Positions 7,720 through 55,914 of a stretch of DNA of 64,000 nucleotides are shown piece after piece. The stretch covers positions 1 to 64,000 of the forward strand of contig JBKHGE010000001.1 in assembly GCA_046539845.1 (NCBI GenBank). Reading direction: 5' to 3'. The DNA is from Desulfonatronovibrionaceae bacterium (lineage in GTDB: Bacteria > Desulfobacterota > Desulfovibrionia > Desulfovibrionales > Desulfonatronovibrionaceae). The stretch's first letter is position 1; the number at the start of each line of letters is the position of its first letter. Made by a program: the position numbers and the translations under genes. Below the pieces are notes generated by a model that was not told the DNA's origin, ran no database searches, and was given only the letters and a program-made list of their open reading frames with translations.

Positions 7720-8069
7720 TTCCTTAAATTCCACTTTGTAACAAGACTTAAGCCACACTAAGATCCCTTGACATACAGCCTGGAACCGGTTTGGTCAAAA
7801 CCCCCTCTTGCCGTTTTCAGGATGGTAACACAGGATGAATACCGAACCTCAAAAGATATTCACCGGGGCCGGCAAAAAATCCCGGTATTTTTTCAACTCT
7901 AGGTTGCGTATCCGGGACAAACATGGCATTATAAATGAAAATGATTTGCGGGGAATCGTATTGAACTTTTTTATAAATATGACTATTTGGACTCTTGTCT
8001 GAGTCGCAAATATATCCCGATCCGCATCTTACCGGCATATAACCAACAACTTCCTTAAGGAGGAGTTTT

Positions 8070-9380
8070 ATGGCTGAAGCAGCTGTCAAACTTGGAGCAG
8101 AGCCGAAAACCACCTTCATGGACAAGGTAAGAGATCTTTTGCCCGAAGAGGGGCATTTGAATCTCTGCCTTACATGCGGGGCCTGCTCTGCCGGATGTCC
8201 TGCCTCCGGCATTGAGGACATGGATCCCAGAAAATTCCTGCGCATGGCCGCCCTGGGGCTGGACGAAGAAGTCACCTCCACCGGCTGGGTCTGGTGTTGT
8301 ACCCAATGCAGGAGGTGTATCTATGCCTGTCCCATGAGCATTGACATCCCCAAGCTGGTTTACCAGGCCCGCGCTGAATGGCCGCGGGAGGAAAGGCCAA
8401 AGGGTATACTCGGCTCCTGCGACATGGCCCTGAAGACCGAAGGCAACAGCGCCATGGGCGCATCCTCTGAGGACTTCAAGTTCGTTGTCGAAGACGTCCT
8501 GGAAGAGATCAAGGAAGAGCAGCCGAACATGGACAAGCTGGTGGCCCCGATAGACAAGAAAGGGGCCAAGTACTTTTTGAACCAGAACTCCCGCGAACCG
8601 GTCACCGAAGCGGAAGAAATGGTCCCGCTGTGGAAGATTTTGAACACGGTCGGAGCGGACTGGACTTACGGCACTCTTGGTTGGGGAGGGGAGAACTACT
8701 GCATGTTCCTTTCCGACACCGAAGGCTGGGAGAAAATAGTCCGCAACAAGGTCAAGGCCGCAGAAGACCTGGGGGTGGAAGTCTTTCTCAATACCGAGTG
8801 AGGGCACGAATTTTATGCGCTCCTGGAAGGATTGCGCAAGTTCAAGATCGAGCCCAAGTTCAGACTGGAAAGCATCATCACCCATTACGCCCGCTGGATC
8901 CGGGAAGGCCGCCTGCCGGTGGACCCGTCCTGGAACAAAGATATAGGGGCCAAATTCACGGTTCAGGATCCCTGCCAACTGGTCCGCAAAGGCCTGGGGG
9001 ATCCCGTGGCCGAGGACCTCAGGTTCGTGGTCAAATCCGTGGTCGGTGAAGAGAACTTCGTGGATATGTACCCGAACAAATCCAACAATTTCTGCTGCGG
9101 CGGGGGCGGAGGGTTCCTCCAGGCCACCGGATATGAAGAACAGCGCAGAAAATTCGGGAAGATAAAGTTCGACCAGATCAAGGAAACCGGGGCCAATTAC
9201 TGCATAACCCCGTGTCATAATTGCCACTCTCAGGTTCTTGATCTAAACGAGTACTACAACGGTGGATACTACACAGTCCATCTGTGGAGCCTTATCTGCC
9301 TCTCCCTGGGCATTCTGGGCGAACACGAACGCGAATACCTGGGCCCGGAGCTGCAGGAAGTGGCTGTTTACGGCGCCTAG
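8070..9380 (+). CDS. Selenocysteine-containing HdrD/GlpC-like (2x[4Fe-4S] plus CCG-domain) Fe-S oxidoreductase, 436 aa, Sec at UGA 8799-8801
   Basis: ORFs 8070-8801 and 8832-9380 are in frame; junction reads NTE-UGA-GHEF at the conserved ECGH Cys; CxxCxxCxxxCP twice, QDPC, CCGGGGG, PCHNC; SD AAGGAGG; hairpin downstream of UGA. Confidence 0.88.
8816..8838 (+). promoter_or_regulatory. Putative bacterial SECIS element
   Basis: UGCGC-UCC[UGGAA]GGA-UU-GCGCA hairpin, loop 22 nt after UGA. Confidence 0.75.
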
Positions 9381-48975: not shown

Positions 48976-49464
48976 TTATCTGGCCAATTCCTTGATTTTA
49001 TCCACGACTACAGGGATAGCGGCCTCAGCCTCCGGGCTGAGACTTTCATCCATCTGTTCCGGGATATACGCGGCCTGTATCGCGATAATCCTGACTTCGG
49101 AGCGGCTGGTCTCCTTGAGTTCTTTTAAGAGATTACTCGTCGGGAATTGGTGCATGGAAAAATCCCCGATGCGTTTGGTGTCCACTTGATCAACATCGAT
49201 TTCAAAGACCTCGCCCGGCTTGCGGTCGATTTTGCTGGTGGCATCCACGATTATGAGCAGTTCCGGCTGCTTCTCGCTTAGCAAGAGATCGAACAAAAGT
49301 GCCCGGATAGATGTGCCCGCGTCCAGTGCGGCAACATCGGACGGCAGATCCGGATCCTTGTTCAGGGTCTCCACGACGCGAGGGCCGAGGGCATCGTCCC
49401 CGAACAGGATATTGCCGCATCCGAACACCACCACCCTGGAAGCAAACATTCTGGACCAGTCCAT
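48976..49464 (-). CDS. Hydrogenase maturation endopeptidase
   Basis: [23 protein letters not shown]; downstream of large subunit gene. Confidence 0.9.
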
Positions 49465-49502
49465 AGTCTATAACCCGCGTTTGTCTCTGATTAAAATTAA
49501 TA

Positions 49503-49528
49503 GGGCCGCCACCTACAGGTGACGGCCC
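49503..49528 (-). terminator. Terminator-like hairpin after hydrogenase large subunit
   Basis: GGGCCGTCACCT-GT-AGGTGGCGGCCC followed by TATTAATTTT on minus strand. Confidence 0.55.
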
Positions 49529-49559
49529 CTTGTAAACCATTTGCAACCAGCTGTCTAAT

Positions 49560-51008
49560 CTAACTTCTCAGGGTATCCACTTTCGATCCCTTGGAATCAA
49601 AGACGTTTACTTCAACATTTACACCGCCGTCCAGGCGGTGTGTAGCACAGCTCATTCACGGGTCATAGGCGCGAATAGCCATCTCAATGCGGTTGAGCAT
49701 GCCCTGATCGTAACTGCCGTCCTTGATCAGTGCCTTGGCCGCCTGTTTGACCGACAGGTTCATGGGCGCGTTGTTGTGCGTGGTACCCACAATCAAATTA
49801 GCCATGGTCACCTGCCCCTTGTCGTCGGTCTTGTAGTGGTGCAGCAGGGTCCCGCGCGGGGCCTCGACACACCCGACACCCTCGCCCGCCTTGGGTTCGA
49901 TATTGGGATCCCGGATTTCCCGGTTGGTGATTTCCGGATCGTTCAGGAGCTCTTCCGCCCTTTCACAACACTGGACCAGCTCTATCAGGCGCGCCCAATG
50001 GTAAAGAAGGGTCAAATGCGAAGGCCGGCCGAATTCCTTGCGGAAGATATCCAGTTCTTCCTGGGCCAAGGGTGTGGCCATCTTGTCGCAGACATTGATC
50101 CGGGCCAGGCAATTGGAGCGATACACCCCGACCGGATCGTTCTCGTCCAGCTTCAGATCTCCCCATTTCTTGGCATAGGGGAACTTGAGATAACTCCACG
50201 GCTCGACATGCTCGCCTATGTAATTGGTGTATTCAGAGTACTTGAACTGATCAAAGTCCCCCTTCTGGTCCATAAGCCTGAGTTCGCCATCGTAGAGCTC
50301 CAAGGCGCCGTCTTCCGGCCGGACCGTTCCTATGTATCCGGAGGGGAAAACCCCCAGGATCTTGACCGCATCCAGGTACTTGGGGAAAACCTCTTCCCGG
50401 GCGAACTTGATGGTGAACACACAGAAGTCCTTGAGTTCCTGTATCCCCTCCAAAAGCTCCTTGCGCTCATCCTCGTTCATGGGCTTGGAAAACCCGCCCG
50501 GAACAGCGGCAATCGGGTGGATCACCTTTCCGGCGAATTTTTCCAGCATCATCTGCGCCTTATAGCGCATGTGCACAACCTTCTTGGCCAGGTCCGGGTT
50601 GGCCCCGACAATCCCGACCACGTTGCGCACGGAATAGTCCTCGTCCGGCCCGATCACAAAGTCCGGGGCGGCCAGGAAATAGAAATGCAATATCTTATCC
50701 GGGATATAGGACAGCATCTGACAGAGTTCGCGCAACTTCTTGCCGGTCGGGGGGAGATTTACCCCCAGGCATTCGTCCGCGGCCTTGTTCGAGGCCAAAT
50801 GATGCTGCCAGGGGCAGATACCGCAGATGCGGTTCACAATCCGCGGGACTTCCTCCACCGGCCGACCGACAACGAATTTCTCAAAACCCCGCAGGGAGAG
50901 CACATGCAGTTTGGCATCCTCCACATTCCCGGAATCGTTCAGGTGGATGGATACACTGGCATGCCCCTCGATGCGGGATACCGGTGCAATATTTAGCGTC
51001 TTACCCAT
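49560..51008 (-). CDS. mvhA: [NiFeSe] MvhA/VhuA-type (group 3c) hydrogenase large subunit, 482 aa, Sec at UGA 49656-49658
   Basis: RIEGH, L1 RICGIC; L2 reads AYDP-UGA-MSCATH, then 25-aa extension to TAG 49560-49562. Confidence 0.92.
49621..49641 (-). promoter_or_regulatory. Putative SECIS of mvhA
   Basis: ACACCGCC[UGGAC]GGCGGUGU, loop 22 nt after UGA. Confidence 0.8.
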
Positions 51009-51018
51009 TATTTTCCTC

Positions 51019-51948
51019 CTAACCTAGCTTTTTCAGCATGCCGTGTGCTCCGCAGAAACGAGCGAGATACCCGCGGCGATCGGGCATTCCCATCGGATCA
51101 AATCCAACCGAGGCCAAGGCGCCCATGTAGTCAACCAGGGGTTTGGCATCCTTGCGGATCGGACCGTAGCAGCCCCGGCACGGCATACGGGCCTGCAGGC
51201 AACGGGGGGGCTTGCCCTTTCCGCCGCACCCGGCCCTGGTTACCGGTCCAAGGCAGAGGAATCCCTGCTCCAGCAGGCAGCGCATCTCGTTTAACGGCTT
51301 ATCCGGATCATACTCCGGGGCCTCCAGCAGACGCTTTATATCCCCGGCGCCCTTTTTGCTTTCCCTGGCAGTTGGACACTCATCGCATACCGAACGCTCG
51401 GGCATGGCGAACTCGGTCTTGCCCTCCAAAAGGGCCAGGACCGCGGCCGCTATCCAGTCCGGATGCGGCGGGCATCCCGGGACATAGATATCCACATCCA
51501 CTATTTCGTCCAGTGCATAGCACTTATCCAGGAGGGGAGGGACCTCGTTCGGGGTGTCTCCGGCATCTGTAGTGGGAGAGTCCTTGTACACAAACTGAGT
51601 AAGCTCCTCGTTTCCGTACATATTGATAAGCGCCGGAATACCTCCGTTTGTGGCGCAGGTCCCCAGGGCGATAAGGAGCTGGCACTTCTTGCGCATTTCC
51701 TTGAGGACTTCCACGTGCTCTTCGTTGCGCACGCTGCCGGAAACAATCCCTACGACTGCTTCCGGAATACTCAGCTCTTTATCCTCGCCGGTCTGACCGA
51801 AGTACTTGTGGTCCATTATTACCGGTATATGTACGAAATCCAGGTTGTTAACCAATAAATCTACTAGTATGTCGCCAATATTGAGAATGGCTATCTCACA
51901 CCCGGAACAGGCGTTCAGCCACTCCTCGGCAACAGTCACTTTGCTCAT
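51019..51948 (-). CDS. mvhG: MvhG/VhuG-type hydrogenase small subunit
   Basis: LNACSGC, GTCATNGG, PGCPP, SVCDECP, CLLEQGFLCLGP, PCRGCYG. Confidence 0.92.
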   Translation of the reverse strand: MSKVTVAEEWLNACSGCEIAILNIGDILVDLLVNNLDFVHIPVIMDHKYFGQTGEDKELSIPEAVVGIVSGSVRNEEHVEVLKEMRKKCQLLIALGTCATNGGIPALINMYGNEELTQFVYKDSPTTDAGDTPNEVPPLLDKCYALDEIVDVDIYVPGCPPHPDWIAAAVLALLEGKTEFAMPERSVCDECPTARESKKGAGDIKRLLEAPEYDPDKPLNEMRCLLEQGFLCLGPVTRAGCGGKGKPPRCLQARMPCRGCYGPIRKDAKPLVDYMGALASVGFDPMGMPDRRGYLARFCGAHGMLKKLG

Positions 51949-51981
51949 ATTCACCTCCGTATACTAACAGCCGTAAGGTTG

Positions 51982-52419
51982 CTAGGCGTTCACTGCTTGG
52001 TCGCACTTGGGACGCATCGGATTTGGTCCCAGGGACTTGATCTTCTCCGTAAACTCAGTGACCACCTCCTGAAAGCGCGGAGCTTCCGCCGAGGAGACCC
52101 ACTCGATCCGGAATCTTTCCGGGTCAATGCCCATGTCTTCCAGAACGAGCTGTATGGCCTGGGCCCTAGCCTGTGCTTTGTAATTACCATCCAGGTAATG
52201 ACATTCGCCCAGGTGTCAGCCCATGACCATTACGCCATCCGCCCCTTTTTCCAGGGCCTCAACCACCAGATTGGGATGGACCATACCTGAGCACATGACC
52301 CTTATAGCACGCATATTCGGAGGATATTGCAGTCGGGAGACCCCGGCTAGGTCGGCTCCTGCATATGCGCACCAGTTGCACAGGAATCCGACAATTACAG
52401 GTTCATAATTTTCAGCCAT
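51982..52419 (-). CDS. mvhD: MvhD/VhuD [2Fe-2S] subunit, 145 aa, Sec at UGA 52216-52218
   Basis: FLCNWCAYAGAD, RVMCSG, ADGVMVMG-UGA-HLGECHYLDGN..ERFRIEWVSSAE..LGPNP to TAG 51982-51984. Confidence 0.92.
52183..52199 (-). promoter_or_regulatory. Putative SECIS of mvhD
   Basis: AUUACC[UGGAU]GGUAAU, loop 22 nt after UGA. Confidence 0.75.
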
Positions 52420-52446
52420 GGGAACAACTCCTTATGGTTTTTTGTT

Positions 52447-55400
52447 CTATGCGCACTCCAGGGCCGCATGCAACTGAGCCCTGAGTTGTTCGTTGGTAAA
52501 ACCATGCACATAAACGCCCTTCTTGGGACAGGTGGCCTCGCAGATCCCGCAGCCCTTGCACAGGGTCTTGCTGGTCTCGATCTTCTTGTACTTCTGGCCT
52601 TCCTTTTCATACTCCACCAGTTCTATCGCCCCATAGGGACAAGTGTCCACGCAGATGGCGCAACCGTCGCAGTTCTCGGTAACGTAGGACTTGATGGAAT
52701 CCAGGGGCATCTCGGCCTGGGAAAGGATGGTCGAGGCCCTGGAAACAGCCGCCTGGGCCTGGGACACAGCCTCGTCAATAGGCTTTGGATAGTGGCAGAG
52801 TCCGGCCAGGAACATGCCGTCCACGCTCAGATCAACCGGCCGCAGCTTGGCATGGGCCTCCTGCAGGAAGCCTTCGTTATTCAGGCCGCACTTATACAAA
52901 CTGACCAGTTCTTTGTTTTCGTGGGGTACGATGGCCGAGGCCAGCACCAGATAGTCGGGACGGACCTCCACATCCCGTCCCAGGATGTGATCATAGGCCT
53001 TGACCACCAAGTCATTTCCGTCCTTGCTCACCTGGGGCTTGTTTTCCAGATCGTAACGGATAAAAACCACTCCCAGCTCGCGGGCTTTCTGGTAGAGTTC
53101 CTCGCGGGCGCCGTAGGTCCGGATATCCCTGTAGAAGACATACACCGGCATTTCCGGATTGATCTCCTTGAGTTCGATCGCCGACTCCATGGTATGCGTG
53201 CAACATACGCGGCTACAATAGGGACGGTCCGGCTCCCGGGAGCCCACGCACTGAATGAACGCGGCCGCCTTGGCCTTTTCCACGGCTGTCTTGTGCTCGC
53301 GCAGTTCAGCGTCAAAGTCGAGATGAGTAAACACACGGTCGTCCTCGGCATAGAGATACTCATTCGGCTTGTATTCCTTGGCCCCGGTGCAGATCACCCC
53401 TATTCCGTACTTGACCGCCCGGGTCTCCCCGTTGACCTCGATCTCACTGGTGAAATCACCCAGGGCGCCGGTGGCGTTCTTTATTGTCGCGTTTTTGTAG
53501 ACCTTTATATTCGGATGCTCTTCAGTCTTGGAGACCAGCTCCTGGACAAAGGGTTTTATCTCCTCGCCCTTCCAGGTCTTGTTCAGATTCCAGGCGTTGC
53601 CGCCCAGCTTGTCCGACTTCTCCAAAAGCACGGTCTCATAGCCCTGATCCGCAAGGCCGAGCGCAGACTTCATCCCGGACACTCCGCCACCTACAACCAA
53701 AGCGGTCTGGTTGACCTTGACCGACAGATGCTCCAGGGGCTGGAGCATGGAAGCCTTGGCCACAGCCATGCGGATCTGGTCCTTGGCTTTCTTTGTGGCC
53801 CTCTCCGGCTCCTTGGAATGCACCCAGCTGTTTTGATTACGGATATTGGCCATTTCAAAGAGGTACTCGTTCAGACCGGCATTTTTCAGAGTCTCCCGGA
53901 AAAGGGGCTCGTGGGTCCTGGGAGTGCAGGCGGCCACAACCACCCGGTTCAGGTTATGTTCTTTGATCTTTTCCGCAATAAGCACCTGGGTATCCTGGGA
54001 ACAGGTAAACAGGTTGTTCTCGGTAAAGACCACGTTGGGCAGGGAATTGGCATATTCAGTGACCTGCTGGACATCCACCGTGCCGGCAATGTTTATACCG
54101 CAGGAGCACACGAACACGCCCACCCGGGGCTCGTCCTGGGTGACGTCTTTTTCCTCGGGAAAGGTCTTTTCCTGGGTCAGGGTGCCGCGCTCCCGGTTCA
54201 GTGCTATTGAGGCCGCCGCTGCCGCGGAAGACGCCTCGGTTACAGACTGGGGGATATCCTTGGGGGCCTGAAAGCAGCCGCTGGCATAGATGCCCGGGAC
54301 GTTAGTGGAGACCGGATCAAAGCTGGAAGCTTGGGCAAAATTGTATTTATCCAGTTTAATGCCCATGTCCTTGGCCAGCTCCACCGCATCGGTATCAGTC
54401 TGCAGGCCGACCGAGAGCACGAACATATCGAACTCTTCCTTGATCCGCTCCTGCTTCTGGTCATCAAAATATTCCAGGATCACTCCACCGTCCGGGTTGG
54501 GATACACGGTGTGAATCCGGCTCTGAATAAAACGGGTGCCGTCTTTTTGGGCCTTTTCGTAGTAAGCCTCGAACTCTTTGCCGTGGGTGCGCATGTCCAT
54601 ATAAAATATGGCGGTCTCTACTCCGCCGGAGACATGCTCATTGGTGACCATGGCCTGCTTTATGGCGTACATGCAGCACACCGAGGAACAGTACCCGTTG
54701 TCGCAACGGTTGATATTCCTGGAACCCACGCACTGCAGCCAGGCGATCTTTTTGGGCTCCTTGCCGTCCGAGGGGCGTTGCAGGTGGCCCATGCACGGGC
54801 CGCCGGCCGAAAGGAGTCTTTCATACTCCAGACTGGTGACCACGTCTTTGAATTTGGAGTAGGCGTAGTGATCAAAAATAGAAGGATCAAAGGCCTTGAA
54901 GCCCGGGGACATGACCACGGAACCGACCTGTACTTCGTGAATCTTATCCTTGTGTTCAGCGTCAAAATCAATGGCGCTCGCCGGGCAGTATTTCTCGCAG
55001 GCCCGGCATTTCCCCTTCTGGACAAAGATGCAAGTGTCCGGGTCAATGGCGTATTTAAGGGGCACGGTCTGGCCGTACTTGATGTAGGCCGCCTTGCGTT
55101 TGTTTAGTCCCTCGTTGAACTCATCCGGGACCTTCTTCGGGCAACGCTCCGCGCATTCCCCGCAGGCGATACACTTGTCCATGTCCACATAGCGGGGCTT
55201 TTCCCGAACAGTTACGGTAAAATTCCCCTCTTCACCCTCAATCTTCTCCACCTCGCTCAAGGTCAGAAGCTGAATGTTCAAGTGCCGACCGCACTCGACC
55301 AACTTGGGCGAGATAATTCACATAGCACAGTCATTGGTGGGGAAGGTCTTGTCCAGCTGGGCCATGGCACCGCCAATCCCAGCCGTCTTCTCCACCAGAT

Positions 55401-55497
55401 AAACGAAATAGCCTGCGTCAGCCATGTCCAGAGCGGACTGGATGCCGGCTATACCTCCACCGACAACCATGACTGCGCCAACTTTTTCTTTAGACAT
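52447..55497 (-). CDS. hdrA: Large (1016 aa) HdrA-like flavoprotein with two FAD modules, Sec60 at UGA 55318-55320
   Basis: [41 protein letters not shown] in frame with 52447-55302; GGGxxG, QCVGSR and YCSxVCC each twice; ferredoxin motifs. Confidence 0.9.
55278..55298 (-). promoter_or_regulatory. Putative SECIS of hdrA
   Basis: UCGAGUGC[GGUCG]GCACUUGA 8-bp stem (one G-U), loop 27 nt after UGA. Confidence 0.55.
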
Positions 55498-55914
55498 GCT
55501 AAACCCCCTTTGCCAGTTGTTGTTTGTTAGCTTGCTCGGGCCGGAACCTACCCCGGATCCGGCGCTCGGTGTAAGCGTGCTATCCCATCCGCATCTTAAG
55601 GATTGGATTCCTTAATATTTTACCGGCGAAAATATTTAGGTAGTAAATAGCGCATGATTTTAAAAAATGCTAGTCTTTCTTGGAACAAAACAAAAAAAAA
55701 CAATCACAAGTTACAAAAAAACGTAACACCGAAGCTGGATTCGGTCTAGCTTGCAGCCTTGTTTCCGCTGGAAATTTAAATGCCAACTAGCATAGATCAA
55801 GGCCGTTTAAGACCATCTCCCGGCAAAGTTCTGGGCGGCAGTCGGTTGCCTCCGGTGCCGATTTGGGCTAAGTCAAGGCCATACATTAATTTCCCGCAAA
55901 CGGATCAGGACCCC

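Follow-up and report, generated by a model that had tools for sequence, protein, structure and literature searches.

The window analyzed here (64,000 nucleotides of contig JBKHGE010000001.1, positions 1 to 64,000 of the forward strand, from the Desulfonatronovibrionaceae bacterium assembly GCA_046539845.1) was found to carry on its minus strand, from 55497 to 48976, five consecutive genes when TGA is read as selenocysteine (Sec): hdrA, mvhD, mvhG, mvhA and a maturation protease gene. On balance we favor the reading that the cytoplasmic Mvh hydrogenase, MvhD and the fused HdrA would form, together with an HdrD-like selenoprotein encoded about 40 kb away at 8070-9380, a bifurcating complex passing electrons from H2 to DsrC and ferredoxin. 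The operon type is already known, and the present operon is a member with a split layout; we add a reading of the fused HdrA as having one bifurcation site and name a candidate for the partner and its substrate. The gene set, TGA positions, Sec machinery, domain order, residue asymmetry and synteny were read directly from the DNA. Two features, the fused double HdrA and the fourth TGA-containing gene at 8070-9380, had been missed in the initial annotation. The four structural genes and their TGA sites (U, Sec) are as follows.

52447..55497, minus strand: hdrA, fused HdrA pseudo-dimer of 1016 amino acids (aa) with Sec60; three segments match HdrA of Protein Data Bank (PDB) entry 5ODC, in permuted order
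55275..55320, minus strand: TGA of hdrA (55320-55318, codon 60, in DCAM-U) with a hairpin of the selenocysteine insertion sequence (SECIS) type
51982..52419, minus strand: mvhD, [2Fe-2S] adaptor of 145 aa with Sec68; Pfam FlpD, 7.7e-57
52179..52218, minus strand: TGA of mvhD (52218-52216, codon 68, in G-U-HLGECHY) with a SECIS-type hairpin
51019..51954, minus strand: mvhG, small subunit of 311 aa, no Sec or TGA; best NCBIfam match VhuG, 2.8e-62
49560..51008, minus strand: mvhA, [NiFeSe] large subunit of 482 aa with C62/C65 and U451/C454 and a 25-aa C-terminal extension
49621..49658, minus strand: TGA of mvhA (49658-49656, codon 451, in DP-U-MSC) with a SECIS-type hairpin

All five frames end in TAG or TAA, and purine-rich ribosome-binding sites precede the first four genes. 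The initial annotation had described three genes split by the open reading frame track with frames running on to proper stops, and this was borne out: the table-11 list contains a 951-aa hdrA frame without its N-terminus, a 67-aa piece of mvhD and a 450-aa mvhA frame. Related loci were collected by an MvhA scan of one-genome-per-species contigs (79 loci, from the best 80 of 122 confirmed stretches); locus and genome sets were drawn from one collection and overlap, so they are not independent. At the codons aligned with the TGAs of hdrA, mvhD and mvhA, TGA was found in 37, 31 and 53 loci and a Cys codon in 7, 25 and 22 loci, respectively (44, 56 and 75 loci covering the site), and nothing else occurred. 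In addition, U68 of MvhD is aligned with a conserved Cys in solved MvhD chains. These findings confirm the earlier claim that an in-frame UGA replaces a conserved Cys in three genes, with Cys-type homologues at all three sites. A sequencing error or pseudogene was rejected because the aligned codons are conserved as TGA or Cys.

The SECIS of bacteria carries a G in its apical loop at a set distance 3' of the UGA. Each operon TGA is followed by a hairpin with a 5-nucleotide loop and a G among the first two loop positions. The z-scores against shuffled sequences were modest (-1.6, -2.5 and -2.0 for hdrA, mvhD and mvhA, respectively), and 69 Cys codons of the same genes gave a mean z of -0.14, with one as low as -3.1. 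A loop-G hairpin was found after 40 of 40, 30 of 36 and 54 of 60 distinct TGA-type segments of HdrA, MvhD and MvhA, compared to 6 of 10, 3 of 29 and 9 of 23 Cys-type segments, respectively; the hairpins noted initially are of a kind commoner after TGA-type than after Cys-type segments. A conserved SECIS loop G is mentioned in PMC1794560. The Sec machinery, which the initial annotation had named as a check, was found in the genome, with selA, selB and selD above curated cut-offs and a tRNA-Sec; selD (G000 C4:33743-34672) carries one in-frame TGA itself, as expected of Sec-type SelD. By their sequences, hdrA, mvhD and mvhA combine UGA at a Cys position, a SECIS element and selABCD in the genome, as bacterial selenoprotein genes do, and read-through of the operon TGAs as Sec is practically certain.

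The HdrA product consists of two modules.

54178..55497, minus strand: HdrA module 1 (aa 1-440), thioredoxin-reductase-like flavin adenine dinucleotide (FAD) domain with an inserted 2x[4Fe-4S] ferredoxin, C57/U60, E226 and K280
52447..54141, minus strand: HdrA module 2 (aa 453-1016), N-terminal shuttle-cluster domain, second FAD domain and C-terminal ferredoxin domain

Compared to HdrA of 5ODC, residues 10-381 correspond to the FAD core with its inserted ferredoxin, residues 455-628 to the N-terminal domain plus the beginning of a second core, and residues 875-1009 to the C-terminal ferredoxin domain. Module 1 lacks the N-terminal cluster domain and retains the DCxxC pair. In the alignment the counterpart of U60 is Cys197 in 5ODC (Cys205 in M. 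marburgensis) and that of K280 is Lys409, so that equivalents of Lys409, Glu356 and Cys197 are all kept. Module 2 lacks the CxxC pair, the inserted ferredoxin and the lysine. In the methanogen enzyme, the Cys202/Cys205-type pair is described as having the MvhD cluster on one side and the bifurcating FAD on the other (PMC13580544), and Lys409 as located at the flavin N5 (PMC13514486). Among 39 aligned sequences (the window and 38 loci, two frameshifted loci having been dropped), module 1 had the lysine and the glutamate in 39 of 39, and module 2 had lysine in 2 and Asp in place of Glu in 37. Of 7994 database homologues, the best 120 all had the lysine in module 1, and none of the 120 had it in module 2 (Gln in 115). 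All four core-cluster cysteines of module 1 were invariant in the aligned sequences, as was the lysine.

An AlphaFold model of a Cys-type relative (L082) gave one confident fold (predicted template modeling score 0.88), which matched the armless HdrA chain 8rvu_a with a template modeling (TM) score of 0.95. The C-terminal ferredoxin arm docks MvhD in solved complexes, and since the arm of one chain serves the FAD of the other chain in the solved homodimers, the fused chain keeps exactly one working set. This residue pattern strongly suggests a single bifurcating FAD, in module 1, and the FAD of module 2 is likely structural. The protein is thus not the canonical homodimeric HdrA of about 650 aa but a 1016-aa fusion with complementary losses, and in this it differs from the methanococcal 650-aa type of the complexes cited initially. 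Complementary HdrA fusions in the opposite order are reported from anaerobic methanotrophic archaea (bioRxiv 10.1101/2021.09.25.461819). Separately, a relative (L042:2370-6629) encodes a fused HdrA lengthened to 1420 aa by an insertion of about 400 aa in module 1, with a qmoC-like gene next to it.

The same build is seen in BamE, which was compared by description: its cryo-electron microscopy structure is reported to show a fused HdrA dimer with a bifurcating FAD at Lys280, a non-bifurcating FAD at Gln768 and a Cys59-Cys62 pair, its core cluster being wired to BamD, an HdrBC/HdrD-like fusion (bioRxiv 10.64898/2026.04.10.717634). Here, too, the N-terminal FAD domain has the lysine and a CxxC pair near residue 60 and the second FAD domain has no lysine, and both systems have an MvhD-like adaptor and an HdrBC/HdrD-like output subunit. 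The Bam module differs in its input (NADH/ferredoxin via BamGHI, not H2), its low-potential output (a tungsten enzyme), its high-potential acceptor, an electron transfer flavoprotein (ETF), and the Sec of BamF, which lies at the position of Cys17 here. Neither the BamBC tungsten module nor the BamGHI input of class II benzoyl-CoA reductase was found in the operon or its flanks. The BamE/BamD phylogeny in the same preprint may already cover the present proteins.

The hydrogenase was classified from its motifs, best matches and gene context. Both metal-binding CxxC motifs are present in MvhA. Its best solved matches were Vhu/Mvh chains (425, 416 and 414 bits) compared to 393 and 374 bits for NAD-linked types, a modest lead over the NAD-linked large subunits, and its best NCBIfam match was likewise Vhu/Mvh, although the archaeal VhuA cut-off was not reached (475 of 800 bits). 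MvhG and MvhD are encoded beside hdrA, with no diaphorase and no export signal; no twin-arginine (Tat) signal was seen in the MvhG sequence. The initial assignment to group 3c (Mvh) is therefore upheld, and MvhADG and the fused HdrA very probably form a complex. The methanogen HdrABC-MvhAGD complexes (5ODC and 9SW2-6; PMC13580544) share with it the MvhA, MvhG and MvhD homologues, all HdrA cofactor motifs, the Cys202/Cys205 pair and the His and acidic residues of MvhD. There, however, a 650-aa HdrA homodimer provides two equal sites, and separate HdrB and HdrC reduce CoM-S-S-CoB, whereas here one chain has one predicted site and the operon has no HdrB or HdrC.

Profile searches found neither hdrB nor hdrC within the operon, as had been noted initially, and no canonical pair of a two-CCG HdrB with a separate HdrC was seen there. 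The idea that the disulfide-reducing partner is encoded elsewhere remains the best reading, with the amendment that the candidate lies in the same window, supported by conserved synteny.

8070..9380, plus strand: stand-alone hdrD-like gene ("glpC"), an HdrC+HdrB fusion of 436 aa with Sec244, about 40 kb from the operon
8799-8801, plus strand: TGA of the hdrD-like gene, in TE-U-GH within a degenerate CCG domain; hairpin at about 8816-8838

The product has an HdrC-like 2x[4Fe-4S] domain in register with HdrC and a complete C-terminal CCG motif. Its best families were HmcF, TmcB and DsrK, all far below their cut-offs (169 of 750, 155 of 735 and 124 of 400 bits). It shares with these proteins, as described in PMC10861901, two cubane motifs, a single complete CCG motif and the T/GECGH motif, and differs from them in having Sec for the motif Cys and no gene for a Dsr, Tmc or Hmc membrane subunit beside it. 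In DsrK this cysteine is proposed to be catalytic for DsrC-trisulfide reduction (PMC10861901). The true DsrK is encoded on contig C3, and the 8070-9380 product is the only other strong DsrK-like protein in the genome. Close orthologues have TGA at the Sec site, and a small number of distant ones encode Cys, Thr, Ser, Leu or Ala there. The SECIS was conserved in 43 of 46 sequences. In a count of its base pairs, for which the structure was drawn up by hand with misregistered outer pairs, only the apical six pairs hold well.

Synteny in relatives points to the same gene. Among 38 operons flanked by at least 2 kb of sequence, an HdrD-like gene (often an HdrC+HdrB fusion interrupted by a TGA) lies directly upstream of hdrA in 25, comprising 23 of 25 distant and 2 of 13 close operons, and the best match of the present genome to these upstream genes is the gene at 8070-9380. 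Orthologues with 65-73% identity were found in six loci. In L040, L118 and L132 they directly precede the fused hdrA (the L132 locus lacks hydrogenase genes), and in L119, L120 and L051 mvhD lies on one side of them and mvhG on the other (the L051 contig starts in mvhD). Together with the window gene, these operon-linked orthologues formed one clade with a support value (SH-aLRT) of 97 in a quick tree, from which 12 near-identical Syntrophobacteraceae rows had been left out. Within the family the gene stands alone in each of the 15 close-orthologue loci that were retrieved, and across the order an orthologue is present in 26 of 33 MvhA-positive genomes compared to 64 of 218 MvhA-negative genomes. 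These findings suggest that the "absent HdrBC" is probably the HdrC+HdrB-fused selenoprotein of 8070-9380, and we regard it as reasonably likely that this product is a subunit of the Mvh-HdrA complex.

Complex formation, bifurcation, direction and acceptor were inferred, and the proposed route is as follows. From solved relatives, H2 would be split at the Ni-Fe-Se site (U451), and electrons would pass from MvhG through the C-terminal ferredoxin domain of module 2 to the [2Fe-2S] cluster of MvhD (U68). The C57/U60 pair would then conduct them to the module 1 FAD, which alone has an N5 lysine. The high-potential branch would lead from the module 1 core cluster through the HdrC-like domain to the non-cubane cluster of HdrD, and the low-potential branch from the module 2 shuttle cluster through the inserted ferredoxin domain of module 1 to ferredoxin. 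The least secure step is that Sec244 would act as a DsrK-type catalytic residue on DsrC-trisulfide or a disulfide. Since Sec244 takes the place of the proposed catalytic T/GECGH cysteine of DsrK, the likely reaction would be H2 oxidation coupled to reduction of DsrC and ferredoxin; given that the 8070-9380 product is a subunit, we lean towards DsrC as the acceptor. The reduced ferredoxin could feed oxoacid:ferredoxin oxidoreductases or an Ech-like hydrogenase.

The genome is 98.9% complete and contains sat-aprBA-qmoABC, DsrC and DsrK, on account of which the host is taken to be a sulfate reducer. A broader version of the proposal is tentative, possible rather than probable: a soluble four-selenoprotein HdrD-HdrAA-MvhD-MvhG-MvhA complex, encoded at two loci, might perform the final step of sulfate respiration independently of the membrane complex DsrMKJOP, H2 freeing sulfide from DsrC-trisulfide at Sec and reducing ferredoxin, which the Ech-like enzyme would convert to ion-motive force. 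If true, such an enzyme would be to sulfate reducers what the Mvh-Hdr complex is to methanogens, with one hard-wired bifurcation site and selenium on both sides of the unexplained MvhD-to-FAD step. If DsrC is reduced, there would be a cytoplasmic H2-driven route in sulfate reducers in which sulfide release is coupled to ferredoxin reduction.

Several observations weigh against assigning the HdrD-like protein to an H2-oxidizing, DsrC-reducing complex. The upstream HdrD-like gene occurs in only the 2 of 13 operons mentioned above among those whose MvhA is at least 70% identical. A close orthologue is missing from 7 of 33 MvhA-positive genomes, so co-occurrence is imperfect; G013 (98% complete) and G009 (97%) carry the whole operon, and their Sec paralogues are all distant (33-36% identity), and in 3 of the 7 exceptions only mvhG-mvhA-protease is visible in the stretch taken. 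Conversely, 64 genomes have the orthologue and lack this MvhA, and in L130, L133 and L135 Sec-HdrD orthologues follow qmoB-like, hdrC, hdrB and usp genes with no Mvh operon near, so the protein may serve other complexes. Because the counted genomes are kin, all these counts overstate. The Sec of HdrD is replaced by Thr, Ser or Leu in three relatives (L085, L088 and L089), and single relatives have other partners upstream (a membrane HdrC-like protein and HdrB in L035, a QmoC-like protein in L042). The nearest solved analogue, BamD, is reported to hand electrons to ETF and not to a disulfide (bioRxiv 10.64898/2026.04.10.717634), and the Ech-like hydrogenase is an alternative route between H2 and ferredoxin.

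Those single relatives are the starting point for another reading, in which the bifurcating core is the same and the partner is the membrane-anchored HdrC-like protein with HdrB encoded on contig C2, or QmoC/AprAB, electrons going to menaquinone or to adenosine 5'-phosphosulfate (APS) reduction. In L035, the two genes directly upstream of hdrA encode proteins with 40% and 42% identity to those of the C2 pair. The HdrB-like protein from C2 carries two CCG domains, the similarity of the fused HdrA extends to QmoA and QmoB (35% and 29%), and Mvh has been named as a possible Qmo partner (PMC3333476). However, C2-type and QmoC-type genes each lie upstream in 1 of 38 operons compared to 25 for HdrD-like genes, and the C2 pair has its own divergent aprA-like/ferredoxin/qmoB-like operon, which makes this arrangement rather unlikely.

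The example of BamD, which has a disrupted distal cluster and reduces ETF, suggests instead that the HdrD subunit might do no more than relay electrons to some soluble carrier that is not DsrC, such as a flavoprotein or a TusA-type sulfur carrier. This is less likely still: no ETF match was found in the 98.9% complete genome, the TE-U-GH motif matches the catalytic motif of DsrK/TmcB/HmcF, and its SECIS is conserved.

The direction of the reaction is not readable from sequence, and the complex might work mainly in reverse, producing H2 from reduced ferredoxin and reduced DsrC in fermentation or sulfur disproportionation. [NiFeSe] enzymes are reported to be biased to H2 production (HysAB, PMC13713477), and the four oxoacid:ferredoxin oxidoreductase loci of the genome could supply reduced ferredoxin. 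Since solved Mvh-Hdr complexes are described as H2-oxidizing and the Ech-like enzyme already offers a route from ferredoxin to H2, we consider a mainly reversed complex improbable. A non-bifurcating H2:ferredoxin or H2:acceptor oxidoreductase without any HdrBC-type subunit would suit the 11 of 13 close operons that have no HdrD-like neighbor and some complete genomes without an orthologue, but it is very improbable, as the invariant core-cluster cysteines and lysine of module 1 fit a retained high-potential exit.

Other partners and routes were sought in the genome. Neither a canonical 650-aa HdrA nor a FlxD-type MvhD nor a further stand-alone MvhD was found there, and a canonical HdrABC or FlxABCD-HdrABC elsewhere was rejected as the partner given that the 650-aa HdrA and a further stand-alone MvhD are missing. 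RnfC, acetyl-CoA synthase and [FeFe] hydrogenase were not found in the genome either. The view of the operon as the only route from H2 to ferredoxin was dropped once a six-gene Ech-like cluster with Ni-binding motifs was found (G000 C11:27832-33155; the name is inferred).

The initial annotation had implied that the operon is rare, which does not stand. Among named relatives, records from Desulfovibrionales, Desulfonatronovibrio and Desulfonatronospira come nearest, with 85-95% MvhA identity; the fused HdrA is present at 75% identity or more in most of 27 family genomes, the three genus g5 genomes excepted, and an MvhA orthologue occurs in 33 of 251 genomes of the order. In 2011, Pereira et al. 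reportedly listed hdrA-mvhDGA clusters and suggested that DsrC accepts the electrons, and the idea of DsrC in this role has therefore probably been put forward before. The operon type has been in print since 2006: Zhang et al. (PMC1794560) describe a five-gene glpC-hdrA-frhD-frhG-frhA operon with four selenoproteins and an hdrA-hdrA duplication in Syntrophobacter fumaroxidans and Desulfotalea psychrophila. It shares with the present operon the order hdrA-mvhD-mvhG-mvhA (their frhD, frhG and frhA), Sec in HdrA, MvhD and the large subunit, the hdrA-hdrA duplication and a UGH-motif Fe-S oxidoreductase selenoprotein in the genome. In the window, by contrast, glpC/hdrD is a solitary gene about 40 kb from the operon, its sub-clade is a different one (with about 35% identity to the helix-turn-helix (HTH)-fused type of Syntrophobacteraceae), and a protease gene follows downstream; because the Sec-GlpC gene is so far off, this is a split form and not the five-gene operon.

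A bifurcation proposal was published in 2009 by Strittmatter et al. (PMC2702500) for Desulfobacterium autotrophicum HRM2, like the present host a sulfate reducer with clustered Sec-containing hdrA and mvhADG: a Sec-MvhA2DG beside Sec-HdrA1 was proposed to bifurcate electrons to a disulfide and ferredoxin. A Sec-HdrD (hdrD4) is encoded elsewhere in that genome, and no partner is named there. In a 2026 review (PMC13188914), HdrA, MvhD, MvhA and the UGH-motif Fe-S oxidoreductase are counted among the known families of selenoproteins, and how HdrA and GlpC of the operon interact is described as unclear. Sec-containing hdrA, mvhD and bamE appear in PMC5109826, and related work is found in PMC3949148 and PMC5296606. 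In the S. fumaroxidans proteome, Mvh1 and Mvh2 were reported as not detected (PMC5947623), which argues against a central role there. The link between the Sec of GlpC and the catalytic cysteine of DsrK, and the split layout, were not found in searches of an open-access library, which is no proof of absence.

The operon is ordinary for Sec-rich Desulfobacterota and usually mis-annotated as broken. The present reading offers a testable answer to the question raised in the 2026 review, namely that GlpC is of the HdrD/DsrK type with Sec at the proposed catalytic position, and suggests that the HdrD/GlpC gene stays in the genome when the operon splits. A one-site HdrA with Sec in the C57/U60 pair and in MvhD would also be a handy model, selenium serving as a spectroscopic and density label for MvhD-to-FAD transfer.

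The remaining features of the operon lie downstream of mvhA.

49502..49529, minus strand: terminator-like GC-rich hairpin of 12 bp in the gap between mvhA and the protease gene, from a consensus scan only
48976..49464, minus strand: hydrogenase maturation endopeptidase of 162 aa; TIGR00072 above cut-off, Pfam HycI

A promoter scan gave 4 sites compared to 5.3 expected. The expression look-up returned one RNA run with 5% of words and otherwise relatives only, as contigs. The 12-mer ATCCGCATCTTA occurs exactly twice in the genome, at 8020-8031 (plus strand) in the hdrD leader in sense orientation and at 55587-55598 (plus strand) in the hdrA leader in antisense orientation. Its core is kept in genus relatives, and 25 of 3000 random AT-rich window pairs share at least 12 letters; it is a weak hint of a shared regulator site.

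In L050:3969-5498 and other Syntrophobacteraceae the operon-linked Sec-HdrD has an N-terminal excisionase-type DNA-binding domain (TIGR01764), and such an HTH-fused protein may be a redox enzyme that regulates its own operon. An FrhB/FdhB-like gene lies between mvhD (or hdrD) and mvhG in L119:6276-7388, L120:5347-6459 and L126:5758-6873 and is a possible second input. Further energy enzymes of the host genome (G000 C13, C8 and C6) are a group-3b-like hydrogenase, HysAB and a complex-I-like cluster that lacks Ni motifs. On contig C2 (L014:7014-15557), genes for an aprA-like flavoprotein, a ferredoxin and a qmoB-like (HdrA-MvhD) protein are divergent from a membrane/HdrC-like gene, an hdrB-like gene and a Crp regulator gene, with tctABC adjoining; judged by its genes, this is a second Apr/Qmo-like module.

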